Source of the DNA: Candidatus Saccharimonadota bacterium | GTDB taxonomy: Bacteria; Patescibacteriota; Gracilibacteria; UBA4473 | Length of the DNA stretch: 32,000 nucleotides | Direction: 5' to 3' | Assembly: GCA_965228485.1 (NCBI GenBank) | Contig: OZ245819.1 | Coordinates: forward strand, 810,001-842,000 | Part shown: one piece after another, positions 3,346-23,771 of the stretch | Layout of the letters: each line of letters opens with the position of its first letter | How positions within the stretch are numbered: position 1 is the first letter of the stretch | Notes under the pieces: model-generated | Database searches by the model: none | What the model was told of the DNA's origin: nothing | The model's input: the letters and a program-made list of their open reading frames with translations, nothing else | Translations under genes and position numbers: made by a program

Positions 3346-5109
3346 ATGCTAAGAACACATCATTGCGGACAACTCAGAAAAGACCATATTGGCGAAACGA
3401 TTACCCTTACTGGATGGGTAAATAACCGACGAGATCATGGAGGAATTATTTTTGTAGACCTTCGAGACACTCACGGAGTCACTCAAATTGTGCTTGATCC
3501 AAGCATCAATGAAAAAGCTCATACTGAAGCCGAAAATGTTCGTTCCGAATGGGTTTTACAGGCCACTGGGAAAGTACGATCAAGAGGAGACGGGCTCGAA
3601 AATCCAAAACTAGATACCGGAGATATTGAGGTAGCAATCCAAGAATTAAAAGTTCTCAATGCGGCTCAAACTCCACCATTTGAACTCGACCTAGAAAAGG
3701 AAGTTCGAGAAGACCTCCGGCTTGAATACCGGTATCTAGACCTTCGACGAACAAAAATGCAAAAGAACCTTCGTCTACGTCACGATATGGTGAAAGTTAT
3801 TCGTGACTATTTTGACCGTAAAGGATTCTTAGATATTGAAACTCCAATTATGGTAAAAGGAACCCCAGAAGGGTCACGAGAATACTTGGTTCCTTCAAGA
3901 CTTCATCGTGGTGAGTTCTATGTACTTCCACAATCACCTCAGCAACTGAAACAGTTGCTAATGTGTGGAGGAGTGGATAAGTATTTTCAGATTGCACGAT
4001 GTTTTCGAGATGAAGACCTGAGAGGAGATCGACAACCGGAATTCACGCAATTCGAAATCGAAATGTCTTTCTGCACTCAAGAAGATGTCATCAACGTGAT
4101 TGAAGATTGTTTTCACGATCTAAATGAAAAGTGTGCTACACACAAAAACTGGAAAAAATACCTGGTTGATGGGAAATTCCTCCGAATGACCTGGCAAGAA
4201 GCTATGGAAAAATACGGATCGGATAAACCTGACATGCGATTTGGTCTAGAGTTCACCGATATGACAAAAGAAAAATCAGATTGTGGATTTGGCGTATTCG
4301 AGGGGGCAGAGCGACTTTTTGCCATGAATGTTCCAAACGGGGGTGAACTCAGCCGAAAAGATATTGACGATCTTACAAACCTAGCTCGAAAACATGGAGC
4401 GGGAGGACTCGCCTGGGTAAGAGTCGGAGAGGATGCAGGACCAGTGATGAAAAACTCTAAACCAGAGTTTATTGAAATGCTCGTCAATAAAACAAACGCT
4501 CAAGATGGAGATCTTATTTTCTTTGGAGCTGGGCCATTCTTACAAGCCGTTGAACCACTTGGGCAGGTTCGTCTTGAATTAGGAGATAAAATGAACCTAA
4601 AAGATCCAAATGATTTTGCTTATCTTTGGGTTGTAGACTTCCCAATGTTCGAGAAAAAAGAGGACGGCTCTATGCAGGCCGCTCACCATCCGTTTACACG
4701 ACCAAATAATGAAGATCTTGAAAAATTGGACAGCAATCCAATGGAAGTGCGTTCTTATGCTTATGATGTTGTGCTTAATGGAGTAGAGCTTGGAGGAGGT
4801 TCAATCCGAATCCATGAACCAGAACTTCAAGAAAAAATGTTCGATGTTCTTGGGCTTACTAAAGAAGAAACCGAAATGAAGTTTGGGCATATTTTAAAGG
4901 CCTTTAAATATGGATGTCCGCCACATGGAGGGTGTGCTATGGGACTTGATCGAGTCGTTATGCTTTTTGCTGACGAACCAAATATTCGAGAAGTAATGGC
5001 TTTTCCAAAAAATCAATCAGCTCAAGATTTAATGCTCGGAGCGCCTTCTCCAATGCCAGAAAAAGAACTCAATGAGCAAAACATTCAAGTTTTACCTGAG
5101 GAAGATTAA
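3346..5109 (+). CDS. aspS: aspartate--tRNA ligase (bacterial type, with insertion domain)
   Basis: Class II AspRS motifs: GWV..RRDHGGIIFVDLRD, QSPQQLKQLLM, FRDEDLRGDRQPEFTQ, GGGSIRIH, GGCAMGLDR. The track ORF starts at TTG 3292. ATG 3346 (MLRTHHCGQL...) matches the usual N-terminus. Confidence 0.95.
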   Translation: MLRTHHCGQLRKDHIGETITLTGWVNNRRDHGGIIFVDLRDTHGVTQIVLDPSINEKAHTEAENVRSEWVLQATGKVRSRGDGLENPKLDTGDIEVAIQELKVLNAAQTPPFELDLEKEVREDLRLEYRYLDLRRTKMQKNLRLRHDMVKVIRDYFDRKGFLDIETPIMVKGTPEGSREYLVPSRLHRGEFYVLPQSPQQLKQLLMCGGVDKYFQIARCFRDEDLRGDRQPEFTQFEIEMSFCTQEDVINVIEDCFHDLNEKCATHKNWKKYLVDGKFLRMTWQEAMEKYGSDKPDMRFGLEFTDMTKEKSDCGFGVFEGAERLFAMNVPNGGELSRKDIDDLTNLARKHGAGGLAWVRVGEDAGPVMKNSKPEFIEMLVNKTNAQDGDLIFFGAGPFLQAVEPLGQVRLELGDKMNLKDPNDFAYLWVVDFPMFEKKEDGSMQAAHHPFTRPNNEDLEKLDSNPMEVRSYAYDVVLNGVELGGGSIRIHEPELQEKMFDVLGLTKEETEMKFGHILKAFKYGCPPHGGCAMGLDRVVMLFADEPNIREVMAFPKNQSAQDLMLGAPSPMPEKELNEQNIQVLPEED

Positions 5110-5157
5110 ACTCCCTTTCTAGACAAGATTAATATTTGTTGGTTATAATCCTCATTG

Positions 5158-5622
5158 ATGCTCGAACAATATCTAGCCTCTCCAAGAGAAAAGATTATCT
5201 ACCGTTTTGGAATTAGTCTTCGTTATGTGTTAACCGTAATATCTCTTTCGGCCATTTCTTTGGGAAGTTTTTCTTACTTCTTTCGAGAAAGTGATGTAGA
5301 TGTTTTCTTTCAAAGAGTCCCTCTTGTTTTACTAACAGTGATTGTTGTTGTATCTGTCGCGCGATTCTTAAGTACTCATTATTTTGTTACTGATCAAAAA
5401 ATCTACAAAAAAGTTGGGATTGGCTGGGCCAAGGTCACGAGTGCTAAACATACTGAAATTGATGATATGAAAGCACAGCAAGGATTTTTTGAGCGATTTG
5501 TATTTAATACCGGAACTCTTAAATTTAATACTCCAGGAAGCGCTGGATATGAAATCGTTCTGCCAAAAGTTGCTGCTCCATATGATATCAAAAGAAAAAT
5601 CTATGAAGCCTGGGAGAAATAA
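5158..5622 (+). CDS. bacterial PH-domain (YdbS/DUF304-like) membrane protein
   Basis: Two N-terminal TM helices, then YFVTDQKIYKKVGIGWAKVTSAKHTEIDDMKAQQGFFERFVFNTGTLKF, typical of bPH_2 proteins. TAGACA-18-TATAAT (5120-5149) ends 8 nt before ATG 5158. Confidence 0.7.
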   Translation: MLEQYLASPREKIIYRFGISLRYVLTVISLSAISLGSFSYFFRESDVDVFFQRVPLVLLTVIVVVSVARFLSTHYFVTDQKIYKKVGIGWAKVTSAKHTEIDDMKAQQGFFERFVFNTGTLKFNTPGSAGYEIVLPKVAAPYDIKRKIYEAWEK

Positions 5623-14136: not shown

Positions 14137-15114
14137 TTATTCTGATGCCACGGTAACGGGGCCACCACTTTGATAGTGAGAAATAAATACTTCTTCCTGC
14201 GATGCTGCTCCTTGTGATACACGTCTGGTCCAATGTGTCGTTAAACGTCCATCATAACCTGCCCAATGTTTTGTTTTTTCTAGTTTTACCTGGCGACCAT
14301 CTTTTGTCCCATAAAAGACTGTAAATAATTTGTTATCCCTCAACACAAACTTCATCAGAATATCCCCCGGAGTGTCATTTTTAAATTTCAAATCCTGTTT
14401 ACCAATATAGACCGTAGCATCCAATCCATGTGGAGCATATTTTGTAATAGCTTGAGAGTGATTTCGACGTTCTAATATAGGCATTCCAGCATTTAGTGCT
14501 GCCCGAAACACATTGGTAGAAGCCTGACAAATCCCTCCTCCAAGACCCCATTGATCTTTCCCATTTACAATAACTCTTTCATATTTGAATCCTCCCTCTT
14601 TGGTCACATCATCTAAGATAGCATTAAAAGAAAATTCTCTCCCTTGAGGGATAATATAGCCATCAAATTTTTCTAGTGTGGCCTCAATATTTTTGATTCT
14701 ATTCGGACTCGATCCTGCAAAATCACTGACTCCAACACTGATGACTTCTTTAATTCCACGGCTCACCAAAAAAGGTTCTGTTAGCTCCTGATCAAGAACA
14801 AAATTTCTTTGTGGATCAAAAGCCCATCTATCTACTAAATTATCATAATCAACAGCCCGATTTAATAATGCTGCCGAAACATCGATTCCTCGGTAACGCT
14901 CAAATAGCCCCTCCTGAATAACTGGTGAATTTGAAGATTGTTTGGCATCAAGACGATTTCGCTCTTGTAGTTGTGCTCTAATATGAGAAGAAATGTCCAC
15001 TACAGATTCTTTAACTACTAAATCTTCTGAAGACTGAACATCCACCACTTCTGCAGGCACAGAAAATGTTAGATTTACCCCAATAGCAGAAGCCAAAAGA
15101 AATCCTGAAGACAT
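14137..15114 (-). CDS. VanW-domain protein (paralog 2), secreted/membrane-anchored
   Basis: VanW core GGGICQASTNVFRAALNAGMPILERRNHSQAITKYAPHGLDATVY. The C-terminal two thirds look roughly half identical to the 10676-11596 product by eye. Confidence 0.85.
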   Translation of the reverse strand: MSSGFLLASAIGVNLTFSVPAEVVDVQSSEDLVVKESVVDISSHIRAQLQERNRLDAKQSSNSPVIQEGLFERYRGIDVSAALLNRAVDYDNLVDRWAFDPQRNFVLDQELTEPFLVSRGIKEVISVGVSDFAGSSPNRIKNIEATLEKFDGYIIPQGREFSFNAILDDVTKEGGFKYERVIVNGKDQWGLGGGICQASTNVFRAALNAGMPILERRNHSQAITKYAPHGLDATVYIGKQDLKFKNDTPGDILMKFVLRDNKLFTVFYGTKDGRQVKLEKTKHWAGYDGRLTTHWTRRVSQGAASQEEVFISHYQSGGPVTVASE

Positions 15115-15120
15115 CCCATT

Positions 15121-15149
15121 ATTATAACAAAAAAAAGCCTTTCAGTAAA
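15121..15149 (-). promoter_or_regulatory. promoter for leaderless VanW paralog 2 mRNA
   Basis: Minus strand: TTTACT (15149-15144), 17-nt spacer, TATAAT (15126-15121), then 6 nt (AATGGG) to ATG 15114. Confidence 0.5.
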
Positions 15150-15175
15150 GGGCAAAATTGATATGATAAAAGTGA

Positions 15176-15850
15176 ATGATTGCTTGTTTTTTTGATTTCG
15201 ATTCAACCGTTGTAACAAAAGAATCTCTGGATGAAGTAATCAATGTTGCGCTTGCAAACCATCCCGAACAATCTCATTTTTCAGCCGAGGTTGAAAGGCT
15301 GACAAACCTAGGAATGGAAGGGAAAATACCTTTTACGCAATCGGTTGATGAGCGGCTTAAATTTTGTCCAGTAGAACAACATCATTTTGAGTATATCGGA
15401 ACACATTTCCTCTCACATATCACTCCTGGATTCGAAACAATGATCAAAACTCTACAACAGAAAGACTGCGAAGTTTTTATTGTTAGTGGAGGATTTCTCC
15501 CAAGTATATATCCTGTAGCAGAAAAATTAAATATTCCACGTCATCAAGTTTATGCCAACGAACCACTCTTTGGCAATGATGGGAACTGTCTTGGAGCCAA
15601 TAAGGACAATCTTCTTTGGACAAACGAGGGAAAAAGCCCCGTAATAGAATATCTAAAAGAGAAGCATCAAATCAAAACTAGTATTTTAGTGGGAGACGGA
15701 AACAATGATTTTCGTGCTTTTGAAAGAGGTTCTGTAGATCATTTTATTGGATTTGGTGGGAATGTCGTAAGAGAAAGCGTCAAAGCTAATGCCCCTATTT
15801 TTACTCACTCAACAGAAGAACTTGAAGCGCAATTAAACCAGATTATTTAA
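15176..15850 (+). CDS. serB: phosphoserine phosphatase (HAD family, SerB-like)
   Basis: DFDST nucleophile motif (FFDFDSTVV), SGGF, GDGNND. Located directly upstream of serA-serC. Confidence 0.75.
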   Translation: MIACFFDFDSTVVTKESLDEVINVALANHPEQSHFSAEVERLTNLGMEGKIPFTQSVDERLKFCPVEQHHFEYIGTHFLSHITPGFETMIKTLQQKDCEVFIVSGGFLPSIYPVAEKLNIPRHQVYANEPLFGNDGNCLGANKDNLLWTNEGKSPVIEYLKEKHQIKTSILVGDGNNDFRAFERGSVDHFIGFGGNVVRESVKANAPIFTHSTEELEAQLNQII

Positions 15851-15872: not shown

Positions 15873-15901
15873 TTGAATTTACTTGGACAAGGGAATATGA
15901 T
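15873..15901 (+). promoter_or_regulatory. putative promoter of the serA-serC leader
   Basis: TTGAAT (15873-15878), 17-nt spacer, TATGAT (15896-15901). The uORF ATG follows 10 nt later. Confidence 0.5.
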
Positions 15902-15911
15902 ATCGGTGTAA

Positions 15912-15953
15912 ATGATACACCGCCCAAGAGGAAAAGGTCGGAAGGAAATCTAA
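15912..15953 (+). CDS. 13-codon upstream ORF in the serA leader (MIHRPRGKGRKEI)
   Basis: ATG ATA CAC CGC CCA AGA GGA AAA GGT CGG AAG GAA ATC TAA. It has a same-length homolog in the glyA leader (MALRPSGKGRKEV). Within the conserved codons the two differ only at synonymous third positions. Confidence 0.55.
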   Translation: MIHRPRGKGRKEI

Positions 15954-15977
15954 GAAAAAACCGTCAAAAGAACTTTT

Positions 15978-16006
15978 ACGGATCGCTGCTCATGCGCCGT
16001 TTTTTT
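15978..16006 (+). terminator. intrinsic terminator of the serA leader, competing with an upstream antiterminator hairpin
   Basis: Terminator: ACGG-at-CGC-tgctcat-GCG-CCGT followed by T6. The ACGG can alternatively pair in CCGTCAAAAG/CTTTTACGG (15961-15981). The terminator ends 21 nt before the serA ATG. Confidence 0.5.
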
Positions 16007-16027
16007 GTTATTAATTTTCTTAAAAAT

Positions 16028-17257
16028 ATGAACAACTCCATCGATAAATCAAAGCTTAAAATCCTTCTTCTTGAAGGCGTTAGTCCAAAATCTCTAAATT
16101 ACTTTAAAGACAATGGCTATGAAAATATTGAATACATCAAGACCGCTCTTCCAGAGTCTGAGCTCATTGAAAAAATAAAAGATGTACACTTCATAGGAAT
16201 TCGCTCTCGAACCCAGCTCACAAAAAATGTTTTTGAAGCGGCAGAAAAACTAACCGCCGTGGGATGTTTTTGTATTGGGACGAACCAGGTTGACCTTGAA
16301 GCAGCAAAAATGAAAGGAGTCCCTGTTTTTAACGCTCCATTTGCAAATACGAGAAGTGTAGCAGAACTTACTATTGCTTCAACTATCCACCTTATGAGGG
16401 GTATTCCTGCTAAAAATATTGCCGCGCACAGAGGAGAGTGGCTTAAAAGTGCCGAAAATTCTTTTGAAGTAAGAGGAAAGAAGCTCGGAATTATTGGATA
16501 CGGAAATATAGGTTCTCAGTTAAGCGTACTTGCTTCAGGACTGGGAATGCACGTTTACTACTATGATGTTGAAAATAAACTTCCTCACGGAAATGCTCGT
16601 TCTACGAGCGATCTCAAAACCTTGCTAGGCATGTCTGATGTTGTCACTGTTCACGTTCCAGAAACTCCTCAAACAAAGAATATGATTAACAAAGAAGCTT
16701 TGAGCCAGATGAAACCTGGGAGCTTCTTGATCAATTATGCTCGAGGAACCGTTGTAGATATTGATGCCCTTAAAGAATCACTCGAAAACAAACATTTACT
16801 TGGAGCCGCTCTAGACGTATTCCCAAAGGAGCCAAAGTCAAAAGATGAAGAATTCGAATCTCCATTAAGAGGACTTGATAATGTACTTATTTCTCCACAT
16901 GTGGGAGGGAGTACTCAAGAAGCACAAGAAAATATTGGAACGGAAGTAGCCGAAAAACTTGTTCGATACTCTGATAACGGATCCACCGCTTGGGCGGTAA
17001 ACTTTCCAGAAGCAAACCTTCCAACCCATGACGGAAGCCATCGAATTCTCAATATTCACCAAAACATCCCAGGAATGATGAGTCAGATAAACCAAATCTT
17101 TGCAGAAAGCGGAACGAATATCGTCGGGCAGTTTTTACAAACTGATCCTGAAGTTGGTTACGTCGTAATCGATATTGATACCCAAAATGATCCTCATCAA
17201 TTCAAAGAAAAGTTAAGCACCATTGAAGGTAGCATTCGTACTCGTGTTCTCCATTAA
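16028..17257 (+). CDS. serA: D-3-phosphoglycerate dehydrogenase (long, E. coli-type with C-terminal ACT domain)
   Basis: Colinear with E. coli SerA as recalled (HFIGIRSRTQLT, AVGCFCIGTNQVDL, VPVFNAPFANTRSVAEL, GKKLGIIGYGNIGSQL, PHVGGSTQEAQENIG, YSDNGST..AVNFPE). Start taken at ATG 16028 (MNNSIDKSKLKILLLEG). The track ATG 15992 lies in the terminator loop. Confidence 0.95.
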   Translation: MNNSIDKSKLKILLLEGVSPKSLNYFKDNGYENIEYIKTALPESELIEKIKDVHFIGIRSRTQLTKNVFEAAEKLTAVGCFCIGTNQVDLEAAKMKGVPVFNAPFANTRSVAELTIASTIHLMRGIPAKNIAAHRGEWLKSAENSFEVRGKKLGIIGYGNIGSQLSVLASGLGMHVYYYDVENKLPHGNARSTSDLKTLLGMSDVVTVHVPETPQTKNMINKEALSQMKPGSFLINYARGTVVDIDALKESLENKHLLGAALDVFPKEPKSKDEEFESPLRGLDNVLISPHVGGSTQEAQENIGTEVAEKLVRYSDNGSTAWAVNFPEANLPTHDGSHRILNIHQNIPGMMSQINQIFAESGTNIVGQFLQTDPEVGYVVIDIDTQNDPHQFKEKLSTIEGSIRTRVLH

Positions 17258-17258
17258 A

Positions 17259-18332
17259 ATGTTTGATATCACCTTTAATCCCGGCCCATCACAAATATCA
17301 AAAGCGACAAAAAAAGATATTCAAGATGCTGTAGACCAAAGGATTCTAGAAATTTCTCACCGAAGTCCTCAGTTTTCTGAGATTTCAACTCAGGCTGTTA
17401 TTGGTCTACGAAAACTCCTCGATATTCCTGAAGACTATCATATATTTTACTTAGATTCTGCCAGTCAAGCCTGGCATTCAATCTTGAGCAATACCGTTGT
17501 GAAAAACTCTTTTCACTTTATTAATGGAGCCTTTTCTGAAAAGTTTTATAAAGCCGCTCAAGTGCTTAATAAATCTCCAAACCATCAAACCGTTTCTTGG
17601 GGGGAACAAAATGATTTTGAGACTGATATCCCAGTAAACACAGAGCTTATTACCGCTTGCTACAATGAAACGAGCACTGGAGTCATGATGAATGCTAAAC
17701 AACTTGAAGCCCTAAGAAAAAATAACCCAGACCCGCTTATTACCATTGATATTACCTCTTGTGCAGGGGCTATGAACGTAGATATATCACAGGCAGATTG
17801 TTGGTATTTTTCGGTTCAGAAATGCTTTGGACTTCCGGCTGGACTGGGGATTCTAATTGTCTCACCAAAAGCCTATGAAAGATCTATAAATTTAAAAAAC
17901 GAAGAAAAAAACTCAGCCGGTATTTGGCAATGGGAAAAACTCAACAAGCCTATGGTAGAAAAAAATCATCAAACTCCCCAAACCCCAAATGTGCTGAATA
18001 TCTACCTCCTTGCAAAACAATGTGAACGATGGAATAACTCTGGAGGTTTGGATCAAATAATCCAAGAAACTAAGACGAAGAAGCAAATGATTGAATCCTG
18101 GACTCAAGATTCTGACTTTAATTTTTTCGTATCCAGTGAAGATTTCCGATCAGACACGGTTTTAACCATCACGGGTTTGCCTGAAAAAGTGGCTGAAATA
18201 CACGAAAAATGTATGCAGAACAATATTGTGATGGGAAAAGGTTACGGAACAACCAAAGCAAATGTATTTAGAATTGCGAACTTCCCAGCGGTAACGGAGG
18301 AAGATCTCGAAAGGTTCTTTTCAATTATTTAA
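17259..18332 (+). CDS. serC: phosphoserine aminotransferase (class V aminotransferase)
   Basis: FNPGPSQISK N-terminus, ISHRS..F, NETSTG, SVQKCFG (PLP lysine context), RIANFPA. Starts 1 nt after the serA stop (ATG 17259). Confidence 0.85.
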   Translation: MFDITFNPGPSQISKATKKDIQDAVDQRILEISHRSPQFSEISTQAVIGLRKLLDIPEDYHIFYLDSASQAWHSILSNTVVKNSFHFINGAFSEKFYKAAQVLNKSPNHQTVSWGEQNDFETDIPVNTELITACYNETSTGVMMNAKQLEALRKNNPDPLITIDITSCAGAMNVDISQADCWYFSVQKCFGLPAGLGILIVSPKAYERSINLKNEEKNSAGIWQWEKLNKPMVEKNHQTPQTPNVLNIYLLAKQCERWNNSGGLDQIIQETKTKKQMIESWTQDSDFNFFVSSEDFRSDTVLTITGLPEKVAEIHEKCMQNNIVMGKGYGTTKANVFRIANFPAVTEEDLERFFSII

Positions 18333-19041: not shown

Positions 19042-19908
19042 TCAAGTCGAAGCCGTCGAGGCAAGATCTATCTTAACACCAATACTATCAAGGATTTTTA
19101 AAATCTCCTCTGGGTCTTCCGCTTTAGACAAATCTACCAATACTTGAACCGAAAGCCTTTGGGCCAAAAAAGCTATAACTTCGTAAATTTGCTCTTCAAG
19201 ATGTCCATCAAAAGATAACTCTAAAGAATCATCAAAACTCCAAGATTGATCTAAAAATTCTTTTTCTTGATCTGAAGATAGGCTAAAGGACAATCGTCCT
19301 TCAAGCGCTAAAGACTCCAAGCAAGAACCAAAAAGCTCATACTCAAATTCCAAGCTCTCTAAGGCGGAATCAATAACTTCTTCAACTATTTCATAAACTA
19401 CTGAATCACTTACTTTCACCACAAGCCTTACCTTTTCACGAACGACATCACTTAACTTCGAAGCAAAGTTTAAACCTTCTCTTGTTACAGCCTCAACTTC
19501 AATGTCTGAATTCTCAGGATGAGTTTCCACAATAGAAGCAATCTGACGTTCGGCCATAAAACGAGCTAAACCCTTTTTTCTATATTCTGGAGCAACAATA
19601 AAGAGTCCTAGATCTCCATCTTTAGCCTCTTGCTGCATCTGTCCGCTCATTGCCACTATTTTATATTCGGCGTTCCTAATAACCGTGATATTCTCAAGAC
19701 TCTCAAACCGCTGTCCTGCAGTACCTCCAAAGATTCTCATCTCTGGGTCATTTGGAATTTTATTTCCCCAATTATCGTGATAAAAATCGCTTAACTCGTA
19801 ATAATCTTCCTCAATAAATTGAATCTGGTGGACAGAATCAGCCTGATCAACGAAAAAATTTTCGCCACTAATTTCTACTGCTTCGAATCCATCATGAACT
19901 TCAACCAT
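19042..19908 (-). CDS. hypothetical protein with GNAT-like acetyltransferase core and acidic C-terminal half
   Basis: 288-aa ORF. LGLFIVAPEYRKKGLARFMAERQI resembles GNAT motif A (R/Q-x-x-G-x-G/A). The C-terminal half is highly acidic. It lies 53 nt upstream of efp on the same strand. Confidence 0.55.
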   Translation of the reverse strand: MVEVHDGFEAVEISGENFFVDQADSVHQIQFIEEDYYELSDFYHDNWGNKIPNDPEMRIFGGTAGQRFESLENITVIRNAEYKIVAMSGQMQQEAKDGDLGLFIVAPEYRKKGLARFMAERQIASIVETHPENSDIEVEAVTREGLNFASKLSDVVREKVRLVVKVSDSVVYEIVEEVIDSALESLEFEYELFGSCLESLALEGRLSFSLSSDQEKEFLDQSWSFDDSLELSFDGHLEEQIYEVIAFLAQRLSVQVLVDLSKAEDPEEILKILDSIGVKIDLASTAST

Positions 19909-22333: not shown

Positions 22334-23611
22334 TTAAACAAAACTATCCGGAATTGGGAAGTCGTGGGCTAATTGTCTCACTTCTTCTCGAATCTTATCT
22401 TTCACGGCTTGATCATCTCGATTATTCATCGCTTCGACCATAAGTTCTGCAACTCGAGCACATTGTTCTTCTTTGAACCCCCGAGTGGTAATCGCTGGGG
22501 TTCCAAATCGAATTCCAGATGGGTCGAACATGGTTCGTGTTTCTCCTGCAATTGAATTTTTGTTCAGGGTAATTCCCACTTCATCCAGTACGTCTTCAGC
22601 TTCTTGACCAGTTACTCCAATTGATCCGTAAACATCCGCCAATAGAAGATGATTATCAGTTCCTCCTCCTATAAGACGAATTCCTGCCTCTAGGAATACT
22701 TTTTCCATGGCTTTGGCATTCTTTAGAATTTGTTGTGCATATTCCTGAAAGGCTGGAGTGAGCGCTTCTCCAAAGGCAACCGCACGAGCGGCTACTGCGT
22801 GCATGTGTGGACCTCCTTGGAGTCCTGGAAAGATTGATTTATCAATTTTCTTCGCTAGTTCTTCGTCTTCTCGAACGAGGATTAGGCCTCCTCGAGGTCC
22901 TCGAAGTGTTTTGTGAGTTGTGGTAGTGATAATATCAAATCCGTAATCAAAAGGATTTTTAACCACTTTCCCAGCAATAAGCCCAGCAATGTGAGCCATA
23001 TCGGCCATAGTGTAAGCGCCTACTTCTTTCGCAATATCAACGAATTTTTGGTAATCCAATTCTCGAGAGTAAGCTGAGAATCCAGCTAGGATAAGTTTTG
23101 GTTTTTCTCGAAGGGCTACTTCTCTCATTTCTTCGTAATCAATTTCTCCTGTATCTGGATTTTTCATTCCGTAACGAACAAAGTTAAATGACTTTGTCAC
23201 GTGTGTTACGGGATGGCCATGAGTTAGATGTCCTCCGTGTGAAAGATCCATCCCAAGAACCGTATCTCCAGGCTCTAGAATTCCATAGTAAACTCCAATA
23301 TTGGCCGGAGCTCCAGAATGTGGCTGAACATTTGCGTATTTTGCTCCGAAAAGCTTACACGCTCTTTCTATAGCGATATCTTCGATCGTGTCGGTGAACT
23401 GTTGTCCTCCGTAGTATCTTTTTCCTGGGTATCCTTCTGAGTATTTATTGGTAAAACAACTTCCTAAAGCTTCATGACAAGCTTTTGAGATATAATTTTC
23501 TGAAGGCACCAATTCCAAACCATTAGCTTCTCGTGCTTCCTCTCCTCGGATAGCATCAGCCATTTGTGGATCTTGGGCTTCAATGAACGGAATCGATTGT
23601 GGACTAGACAT
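22334..23611 (-). CDS. glyA: serine hydroxymethyltransferase
   Basis: LELVPSENY, YSEGYPGKRYYGG, NVQPHSG..AN, TTTTHKTLRGPRGG (PLP lysine), GGPHMH. Confidence 0.96.
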   Translation of the reverse strand: MSSPQSIPFIEAQDPQMADAIRGEEAREANGLELVPSENYISKACHEALGSCFTNKYSEGYPGKRYYGGQQFTDTIEDIAIERACKLFGAKYANVQPHSGAPANIGVYYGILEPGDTVLGMDLSHGGHLTHGHPVTHVTKSFNFVRYGMKNPDTGEIDYEEMREVALREKPKLILAGFSAYSRELDYQKFVDIAKEVGAYTMADMAHIAGLIAGKVVKNPFDYGFDIITTTTHKTLRGPRGGLILVREDEELAKKIDKSIFPGLQGGPHMHAVAARAVAFGEALTPAFQEYAQQILKNAKAMEKVFLEAGIRLIGGGTDNHLLLADVYGSIGVTGQEAEDVLDEVGITLNKNSIAGETRTMFDPSGIRFGTPAITTRGFKEEQCARVAELMVEAMNNRDDQAVKDKIREEVRQLAHDFPIPDSFV

Positions 23612-23652
23612 TGTAGTTTTGGTTAAAAGGTTGGTTAAATAATTTTAAAAGT

Positions 23653-23681
23653 AAAAAACAGCGACAAATTTCTGCGCTGTT
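23653..23681 (-). terminator. intrinsic terminator inside the glyA leader (or terminator of the upstream metA-like gene)
   Basis: Minus strand: AACAGCG (23681-23675), 11-nt loop, CGCTGTT (23663-23657), TTTT. It ends 41 nt before the glyA ATG. Confidence 0.6.
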
Positions 23682-23702
23682 CTTCATAAGTGTTTCCCAA
23701 AA

Positions 23703-23771
23703 CTAAACCTCTTTTCGCCCTTTCCCGGAAGGACGTAAAGCCATACTGTTCTGAGATATTTTGTGGGTCAT
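23703..23771 (-). CDS. upstream ORF in the glyA leader (MTHKISQNSMALRPSGKGRKEV; 13-codon version from ATG 23744)
   Basis: The first ATG is 11 nt after the TATCTT -10 box. The C-terminal 13 codons (ATG GCT TTA CGT CCT TCC GGG AAA GGG CGA AAA GAG GTT TAG) parallel the serA-leader uORF codon for codon. Confidence 0.55.
   Translation of the reverse strand: MTHKISQNSMALRPSGKGRKEV

Follow-up and report, generated by a model that had tools for sequence, protein, structure and literature searches.

What does a peptide of ten residues do when one bacterial genome encodes it ahead of two separate transcription units, each time flush against a stop codon? The question is raised by the window analysed here, a 32,000-nucleotide stretch of Candidatus Saccharimonadota bacterium (GenBank assembly GCA_965228485.1, contig OZ245819.1, positions 810,001 to 842,000; coordinates below are those of the window), in which a short upstream open reading frame (uORF) and a transcription terminator precede both serA-serC and glyA. 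The encoded peptide is under selection, and the evidence for this, drawn from 41 leaders, is strong. By its sequence features, the element is very probably a translated, peptide-selected leader ORF that regulates in cis the genes behind it. We put the probability that it works as a whole in the manner proposed below, as a termination-arrest leader peptide controlling a serine/glycine/one-carbon regulon, at roughly 0.55.

A preliminary description of the window, made from its letters alone, had proposed a uORF common to serine and glycine transcription units, and the family assembled here, which consists mostly of glyA and serB/serA/serC leaders, bears this out. The promoter, uORF and terminator coordinates it gave are all reproduced, and a hairpin with a U-run does follow the uORF in both leaders of the window. 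The codon-degenerate core CGNCCNNNNGGNAAAGGNCGNAANGA has two exact matches in the 32 kb, and still two when up to three mismatches are allowed, against an expectation of 0.09 in shuffled sequence. The repetition is therefore real and not a chance event.

A decapeptide conserved up to its stop codon

In the serA leader the uORF (uORF-1) reads ATG ATA CAC CGC CCA AGA GGA AAA GGT CGG AAG GAA ATC TAA, and in the glyA leader the core of the second copy (uORF-2) reads CGT CCT TCC GGG AAA GGG CGA AAA GAG GTT TAG, ending at position 23703. The eight codons for shared residues differ at third positions only, and every difference is synonymous, as had been claimed. This pattern extends to the whole family. 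The motif R-[P]-x-G-K-G-R-K-E-[I/V/L] abuts the stop codon directly in 41/41 leaders, and its variation is synonymous. Among 36 leaders retrieved by pattern, codon positions 1-2 carry 2.0 bits of information, two-fold degenerate wobble positions 1.2-1.5 bits and four-fold degenerate ones 0.1-0.5 bits. The first Arg is encoded by CGN in 32 leaders and by AGR in 4, as is the second, at motif position 7. All four synonyms occur for the Pro and Gly codons, and all three stop codons are used (TAA 13, TAG 17, TGA 6).

The family was gathered by two pattern scans. The first, over one genome per species, used the pattern CCNNNNGGNAARGGNMGNAARGARRTNTRR, which leaves the Arg before Pro unconstrained, and returned 35 loci. 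Twenty-six of these lie in genomes labelled Ca. Peribacteria, Ca. Gracilibacteria, Ca. Altimarinota or unclassified 'bacterium', which NCBI taxonomy assigns to the Patescibacteria group and Peregrinibacteriota; an Arg codon precedes the Pro in 26/26 and an in-frame ATG lies upstream in 26/26. The remaining 9/35 are expected chance matches from unrelated phyla with different gene contexts, and Arg precedes Pro in 1/9. The second scan, over metagenomes, left the last motif residue unconstrained and returned 47 loci. Upstream of glyA or a ser operon, that residue is V, I or L in every case; outside these contexts it is P, K, E, S, G, A, D, H, W or C, or a second stop. Removal of duplicates leaves the 36 non-redundant leaders on which the codon, folding, promoter and stop statistics are based. 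Four more leaders (L086, L087, L089 and L090) and a second copy in L006, found by motif-independent look-ups or a six-frame re-scan, bring the total to 41.

All 41 leaders come from lineages of the Candidate Phyla Radiation (Ca. Altimarinota/Gracilibacteria and Ca. Peribacteria), a group of uncultured ultra-small bacteria. The gene behind the leader is glyA in 26 cases. Ten leaders precede serB/serA/serC operons, some of which run on into folA and dcd and some of which have thyA on the 5' side. One precedes a gene of unknown function followed by folA-dcd, one a transporter of the Vut_1 family, and three precede small proteins with no Pfam match, in one case followed by an EamA transporter. Several copies can occur in one genome, each ahead of a different gene of one pathway. 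Between them, the regulated genes provide glycine and 5,10-methylene-tetrahydrofolate and keep the thymidylate cycle going.

A smaller sample was drawn independently of the motif, by picking SerA and GlyA homologues on protein identity. Of its nine loci, six have the uORF (L001, L002, L086, L087, L089 and L090); the other three are one Paceibacterota genome and two loci with different neighbourhoods. Over the motif-independent set GKGRKE[IV]-stop is invariant; in its six invariant codons the nucleotide columns that vary are third positions in five cases and, in one, a first position whose change is synonymous. The sole amino-acid changes are Pro to His in L089 (GCA_054034935.1, JBPLPR010000005.1, ~1395-1450), where ...RHVGKGRKEV lies upstream of glyA, and Pro to Arg in the second copy of L006 (- strand, 67-117), which ends ...PPRRIGKGRKEV and also lies upstream of glyA. 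Since both variants occur naturally, the Pro is not essential and the pattern searches underestimate the family. The set also contains minimal uORFs of 12 codons, MKRPTGKGRKEV and MKRPSGKGRKEI.

The preliminary description had further noted that both copies can form a hairpin in the same register, and had named the fate of the frame against that of the hairpin in relatives as a way to tell a peptide from an RNA motif. The comparison favours the peptide, with motif and stop kept in all 41 leaders. The pairing is present; as a functional element the inner hairpin is rejected. It has no covariation, synonymous AGR codons for Arg remove two of its pairs without compensation, and the only free pair of the stem forms in 16/36 leaders, where 13.8 are expected from column composition. 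That the CGNCC and GGNCG segments can pair is a by-product of bases that Arg-Pro and Gly-Arg codons fix in any case. Structure over the uORF in general is likewise rejected: folding of the uORF plus 20 nt gives a mean z of -0.36, with values below -2 in 3/36. A significant enclosing helix is confined to one glyA subfamily, which includes the window's leader, L001 and L031 (z down to -7.4); its equivalent in L001 covaries with that around uORF-2, and it is not general in the family.

The family lies outside every described one, in line with the earlier statement that the element matched no riboswitch, T-box or leader-peptide class. Rfam gives nothing at the gathering threshold over the whole window, and in the two leaders chance-level matches only at E<=10. 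Four uORF peptides searched against Pfam and NCBIfam at E<=10 belong to no family, the one chance match (BH4, E 0.21) being below its cut-off, and a profile of the motif has no match at E<=10 in a collection of 5.8 billion proteins. In the literature searched, the string GKGRKE was not found, and nothing relevant was found on leader peptides of glyA (serine hydroxymethyltransferase, SHMT) or on leader or arrest peptides of Patescibacteria. We regard the element as a leader-peptide family not described before, restricted to one clade, whose geometry is unusual and whose regulon is new.

The nearest SerA to that of the window (79% identity) is encoded in a syntenic neighbourhood on OZ246423.1, a chromosome that carries the label Candidatus Altimarinota. 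Another SerA, with 75% identity to that of the window, occurs in L088 (Logan SRR33677549 contig, 3480-4000) with a 500-nt upstream region that holds no uORF; its neighbourhood, with a response regulator, PMT glycosyltransferases and a PKD-domain protein, is unlike those of the Candidate Phyla Radiation. This suggests that a serA of gammaproteobacterial type moved horizontally and that the leader is specific to the clade. As a separate observation, a gene for a 23S rRNA intervening-sequence protein (PF05635) lies between uORF and glyA in L016 (JAIPGI010000001.1, ~850-1210) and at the P0163 locus, and shifts glyA ~450 nt from its leader.

Anatomy of the leaders

The features of the two leaders in the window are as follows.

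Serine side, + strand:
15176-15850, serB-like HAD phosphatase gene, 5' neighbour of the serA leader
15873-15878 (-35 TTGAAT) and 15896-15901 (-10 TATGAT), spacer 17, predicted sigma-70-type promoter of the serA-serC leader, by sequence match
15912 (ATG) to 15951-15953 (TAA), uORF-1, MIHRPRGKGRKEI, 13 codons plus TAA, by ORF reading
15921..15953, conserved core of uORF-1, R-P-R-G-K-G-R-K-E-I plus stop, by codon comparison
15961-15970, segment CCGTCAAAAG of the serA leader
15973-15981, segment CTTTTACGG of the serA leader
15961..15981, alternative hairpin CCGUCAAAAG/CUUUUACGG, the antiterminator of the preliminary description, particular to the serA leader, by folding
15978..16006, intrinsic terminator of the serA leader, stem ACGG-AU-CGC / GCG-CCGU at 15978-16000, then a U-run
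16028..17257, serA, D-3-phosphoglycerate dehydrogenase, regulated gene (NCBIfam NF008759, 654 bits)
17259..18332, serC, phosphoserine aminotransferase, co-transcribed with serA

Glycine side, - strand:
23811-23806 (-35 TTGACT) and 23788-23783 (-10 TATCTT), predicted promoter of the glyA leader
23703..23771, uORF-2, MTHKISQNSMALRPSGKGRKEV, 22 codons plus TAG, start chosen by promoter position and shared N-terminus
23744 (internal ATG) to 23705-23703 (TAG), shorter reading of uORF-2 in the preliminary description, MALRPSGKGRKEV, 13 codons
23703..23735, conserved core of uORF-2, R-P-S-G-K-G-R-K-E-V plus stop, by codon comparison
23695..23756, subfamily-specific helix around the uORF-2 core, UCUCAGAAC (23756-23748) pairing with GUUUUGGGA (23703-23695)
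23652..23686, intrinsic terminator of the glyA leader, strong stem GAACAGCG.../...CGCUGUUU with an A:U extension, then a U-run
23614..23622, CCAAAACUA, 5-13 nt 5' of the glyA start, complementary to the uORF-2 stop region
22334..23611, glyA, serine hydroxymethyltransferase, regulated gene (NCBIfam NF000586, 563 bits); metA and glyA flank the uORF-2 leader

The uORF begins close to the 5' end of its predicted transcript. The ATG of uORF-1 starts 10 nt past the end of the -10 box, so its transcript probably carries a 5' leader of ~4 nt. Over the family, a promoter-like match of at least 9/12 with its -10 box 6-12 nt before the uORF ATG is found in 21/36 leaders, against 0.8% of random anchors. 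Going by promoter prediction, this spacing would make the uORF first on the transcript, behind a leader of 0-5 nt. The same reasoning bears on uORF-2, which had been thought equal in length to uORF-1. An ATG lies at 23771, 11 nt past the -10 box TATCTT, and the N-terminus MTH(K/I) read from it is common to six orthologous glyA leaders; uORF-2 therefore most probably starts there rather than at 23744. With 22 codons against 13, the two uORFs then differ in length.

Such promoter-proximal starts are not peculiar to the uORFs. Ordinary genes of the window mostly lack a Shine-Dalgarno sequence, and in several of them a -10 box stands 6-8 nt ahead of the start codon. TATAAT-like boxes precede 14137-15114 (-), 15176-15850 (+), 19042-19908 (-) and 5155-5622 (+), where the upstream regions are A/U-rich. 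By these sequence signs, leaderless expression seems common in the genome, and perhaps the norm. A variant genetic code in which UGA encodes Gly occurs in some Gracilibacteria. In the window, ORFs of translation table 11 cover 91% of the sequence and TGA is used as a stop, which identifies the code as standard. The variant is rejected: read with the standard code, the 17 loci checked reach ORF coverages of 0.83-0.97, with three exceptions, namely two loci at 0.79 and 0.62 and a 1.1-kb contig whose length does not allow a score.

The part of the uORF N-terminal to the motif is unconstrained. It ranges from 2 to 22 residues, for a total of 12-32 codons, and at two loci it is replaced by a full-length enzyme to which the motif is fused in frame as the C-terminus; neither of these motifs has a separate promoter. 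The carrier in L073 (metagenome contig Ga0307932_1000974, + strand, ~3877-3909) is an FAD-linked oxidase of 482 amino acids upstream of serA, whose Pfam FAD-oxidase_C domain ends at residue 469/482 and leaves the tail MVSRPSGKGRKEV. In L006 (CAZYIR010000091.1, - strand) the motif ends a protein of the F420-ligase family upstream of the Vut_1 transporter.

Downstream of the motif, the stop codon is often backed up. A second in-frame stop occurs within two codons of the uORF stop in 10/36 leaders, against 2/36 and 4/36 in the other frames, and follows immediately in 6/36; back-up stops are seen, for example, in L004, L011, L016, L028, L064 and L068. This enrichment fits a stop at which release is slow. 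Regulated read-through of the stop into the terminator is rejected as a general solution, with the frame beyond the stop not preferentially open and tandem stops enriched. A hairpin with a U-run is found by a strict finder in 24/36 leaders, and in 19/24 its stem starts +20 to +29 past the stop (median +24), with stems that are unrelated in sequence. The terminator hairpin of L089 overlaps the uORF stop codon, and inspection of L006 and L073 by eye shows a short hairpin that begins no more than 5 nt from the stop.

Elsewhere in the window, a hairpin GCCTTTCAGTAAAGGGC at 15131-15160 lies between the divergent VanW-domain and serB-like genes, bordered by an A-run at one end and a T-run at the opposite end. 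It resembles a bidirectional terminator, although promoters are expected at that place.

Proposed arrest at the stop codon and the alternatives to it

The mechanism we favour places the action of the peptide inside the ribosome. The uORF would be translated from the extreme 5' end of the transcript, its last ten codons followed directly by the stop, and the nascent decapeptide would act in cis before leaving the ribosome. It is established from ribosome structure that ten residues fill the stretch from the catalytic centre to about the tunnel constriction when the A site holds the stop codon. The decapeptide would thus span the peptidyl-transferase centre and the upper exit tunnel, where it may slow or block release in the manner of TnaC, SpeFL and PepNL. 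Action at this place and moment is indicated by three properties taken together: ten contiguous residues ending exactly at the stop, indifference to the N-terminal part, and indifference to the stop codon and hence the release factor. The dwell time of the ribosome at the stop would then set how much transcription or translation reaches the genes past the intrinsic terminator.

A metabolite or cell state would modulate the stall, and the gene contexts suggest a serine, glycine or folate one-carbon signal. That decapeptide and exit tunnel jointly form a binding site for such a metabolite is possible but doubtful; if they do, the ligand may be an anion (a folate, say, or a phosphorylated intermediate), to judge from the strongly basic character of the chain.

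The passage from ribosome to terminator is an insecure step. The preliminary description proposed a terminator/antiterminator switch, and folding does predict one in the window's serA leader, where the terminator probability rises from 0.06 in free RNA to 0.51 once a ribosome occupies the stop. As a feature of the family the switch is not supported. The antiterminator CCGUCAAAAG/CUUUUACGG has no counterpart in the orthologous L001 leader, in L087 or in most others, and a trp-like antiterminator is rejected, as masking a ribosome footprint at the stop or at the Gly codons has no systematic effect. The terminator stem lies ~24 nt past the stop in most leaders, both of the window's included, where direct occlusion by the ribosome is impossible and no conserved RNA antiterminator is found. 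A terminator just outside the reach of the terminating ribosome explains why the offset is conserved and leaves the regulation unexplained.

The arrangement is clearer at three loci. In L089, L073 and L006 the hairpin lies at the stop or within 5 nt of it, so a ribosome parked there must prevent the hairpin, and stalling would mean expression. For L089, folding with the footprint masked takes the terminator probability from 0.94 in free RNA to 0.00 with a ribosome at the stop.

Several results weigh against the arrest mechanism. Over 24 leaders, mean sequestration of the terminator 5' arm is 0.51 in free RNA, 0.50 with a ribosome at the stop and 0.45 with one at the Gly codons, and complementarity between the uORF and that arm is at chance level (mean z +0.30 and -0.01). 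The sign of the predicted effect is inconsistent: the predictions for the window's serA leader, L086 and L027 suggest that termination is favoured by a stall, and those for L017, L032 and L089 suggest the opposite. Nor does coupling to RNA polymerase supply the connection. A directly coupled complex, with a spacer of 8-10 codons, suppresses intrinsic termination, and the long-range complex TTC-LC, with at least 12 codons, does not (10.1101/2020.03.01.972380; 10.1101/2024.07.20.604413). For a ribosome standing at the uORF stop while the polymerase is at the end of the U-run (~+55), the spacer comes to ~14-17 codons. This is the long-range state, and the physical link between stall and terminator is therefore missing. 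In addition, we infer stalling solely from the geometry of conservation, and the apparent invariance of the motif is inflated, as most leaders were retrieved by patterns derived from the peptide.

A second possible output is the start codon of the downstream gene. Bases at and after the uORF stop complement the region just 5' of the downstream start in both leaders of the window, in L001 and in serB-type leaders. In the window's glyA leader, CCAAAACUA is the perfect 9-nt complement of UAGUUUUGG (23705-23697, the uORF-2 stop codon and the next six bases); this duplex has a dG of -11.4 (p=0.012 against shuffles), and its L001 counterpart reaches p<0.002. The pairing is weaker in the window's serA leader and in serB-type leaders, and as a general output it is rejected, since few leaders, both of the window's among them, reach significance (mean z -0.14 over the family). 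Where the duplex exists, a parked ribosome could unmask the downstream start.

A recurrent UUUUAAC(U/C) box also stands in this region, after the terminator and 5-25 nt 5' of the start codon of the regulated gene. It is seen in L001, L002, L013, L032, L037, L011, L028 and L044 and at 23640-23620 (-) of the window, and in serB-type leaders it pairs with a conserved box after the stop, CGAAAAAGUUA with UAACUUUUU. The box might be a start-region signal of the clade.

Among other explanations, classical attenuation through hungry codons survives best and is nevertheless unlikely. On this view, charged tRNA-Gly and tRNA-Ser would be monitored at the two invariant Gly codons and at the Ser codon that often stands at position x; a starvation pause there would refold the leader and let the polymerase read through, on the principle of the trp, his and thr leaders. 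Serine and glycine are indeed the products of the regulated genes, a short leader ORF with a terminator is the classical layout, and the E. coli trp leader shows that a pair of regulatory codons can be enough. Ser occupies position x in 17/36 leaders and in most leaders of serA/serB operons; Val, Ile, Thr or Arg does so in the other 19/36. Codon sensing needs neither the R, P, K, R, K, E and I/V/L residues nor abutment on the stop, yet these are conserved like the Gly codons themselves. The Gly codons, moreover, are drawn from all four GGN synonyms, and no antiterminator is detectable for a ribosome paused at them.

The peptide might instead function after release, as a basic mini-protein binding RNA or an enzyme, or the motif might be a C-terminal tag, a degron or targeting tail, encoded beside the genes of its partners. 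The two full-length enzymes that end in the motif (L073 and L006) and its strongly basic character are what such a role would look like. Free peptides of 12-13 residues with an unconstrained N-terminal part are, however, unlikely to be stable effectors. The constant order of promoter, uORF, terminator and gene, together with the conserved offset from stop to terminator, indicates action in cis, and a released product does not account for several copies per genome, each before a different gene of one pathway. A role after release is accordingly quite improbable.

Alternatively, the sensing step could be initiation. Translation of a leaderless uORF would report one-carbon status through formyl-Met-tRNA, whose formyl group stems from the regulated pathway (serine to SHMT to the folate one-carbon pool), and the conserved tail would do no more than hold the ribosome. 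Most leaders do have leaderless or near-leaderless geometry, and serA/C/B, glyA, folA and dcd feed the one-carbon pool. Ordinary genes of the same genome, however, also look leaderless and lack a Shine-Dalgarno sequence, at the two in-frame fusions the ribosome arrives from an initiation site elsewhere, and the link to the terminator is equally missing; initiation is a distinctly improbable sensor. Finally, a structured RNA (a riboswitch, or a protein or small-RNA site) that is incidentally readable as an ORF is essentially excluded, for all the pairing and the long glyA hairpins described above, by the lack of any Rfam match above chance level even at E<=10, the folding and covariation results, uORFs of 12 codons that are too short for the enclosing helix, and three-nucleotide periodicity, CGN/AGR switching, an in-frame ATG and free choice of stop codon, none of which it would lead one to expect.

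Relation to known leader peptides

To our knowledge, few nascent peptides are recognised as regulatory sensors on the ribosome, all of them from cultivated model bacteria, and almost nothing is known of gene regulation in the Candidate Phyla Radiation, where few regulators are recognisable. The element would add a very compact ribosomal sensor, unrelated in sequence to the others, for which ten residues are enough. It would define a ribosome-directed regulon that ties together serine synthesis, SHMT, DHFR and dCTP deaminase, and with them the supply of glycine, thymidylate and formyl-methionine. With its conserved offset of ~24 nt and no antiterminator, it also raises a mechanistic question: by what means does a terminating ribosome signal to RNA polymerase? 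If the peptide does bind a metabolite, it would be the first sensor of the ribosome-nascent-chain type for the serine/glycine/one-carbon pathway and the first in the Candidate Phyla Radiation. It would then stand in for the ZTP, THF and glycine riboswitches or T-boxes used elsewhere, in a form portable enough to be a 12-residue uORF or the tail of a 480-residue enzyme.

The uORF peptides TnaC, SpeFL and PepNL are short and keep release factors from acting at the stop codon (PMC8450073; 10.1101/604074; PMC11890864), and we infer that the element acts like these termination-arrest leader peptides while being laid out like a classical attenuator. TnaC likewise is a short uORF with conserved residues at a fixed distance from the stop; its nascent chain blocks the release factor, and the stalled ribosome decides transcription of the operon (PMC8450073, PMC8429421). 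TnaC has no sequence similarity to the decapeptide. It comprises 24 residues, with spaced key residues and a Pro-UGA end, whereas here the decapeptide is contiguous, ends in Ile, Val or Leu and precedes any of three stop codons. TnaC acts through Rho, whose entry site the stalled ribosome covers (as it does with SpeFL), to induce a catabolic operon, the tryptophanase operon of Enterobacteria; here an intrinsic terminator follows and the genes are biosynthetic.

SpeFL also is a uORF nascent chain with metabolite-dependent arrest at the stop and a downstream metabolic gene, speF (10.1101/604074), the arrest in the present family being proposed. It differs as an ornithine sensor of 34 residues with separate sensor and effector domains, dependent on Rho and found in Gammaproteobacteria, and it bears no similarity to the decapeptide. 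PepNL, the 14-residue leader of E. coli pepN, keeps the GGQ loop of the release factor from the catalytic centre (PMC11890864). Its arrest means that peptides of the size of the decapeptide uORFs can act at a stop codon. The N-terminus of PepNL, however, must fold back, whereas the N-terminal part is freely variable here, and its arrest is relieved by UGA read-through, which is disfavoured here by the enriched tandem stops and the use of three stop codons.

The Cys ribulon of mycobacteria resembles the family in layout and distribution, with a leaderless small ORF as first cistron at several loci of one pathway (10.1101/834739). Its stalled ribosome opens a duplex that hides the downstream start (10.1101/834739), and the window's glyA leader has such a duplex in UAGUUUUGG/CCAAAACUA, although a stop/start duplex is not general in the present family. 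The ribulon senses through a run of Cys codons and has no terminator, while the element here has a conserved peptide and no such codon tract. The trpL, hisL, thrL and pheL leaders share with it the promoter, the short leader ORF, the intrinsic terminator and the biosynthetic genes. Unlike them, the family has no run of regulatory codons, only two Gly codons split by a Lys; its peptide sequence is conserved, it has no conserved antiterminator, and its ORF ends ~24 nt before the terminator stem.

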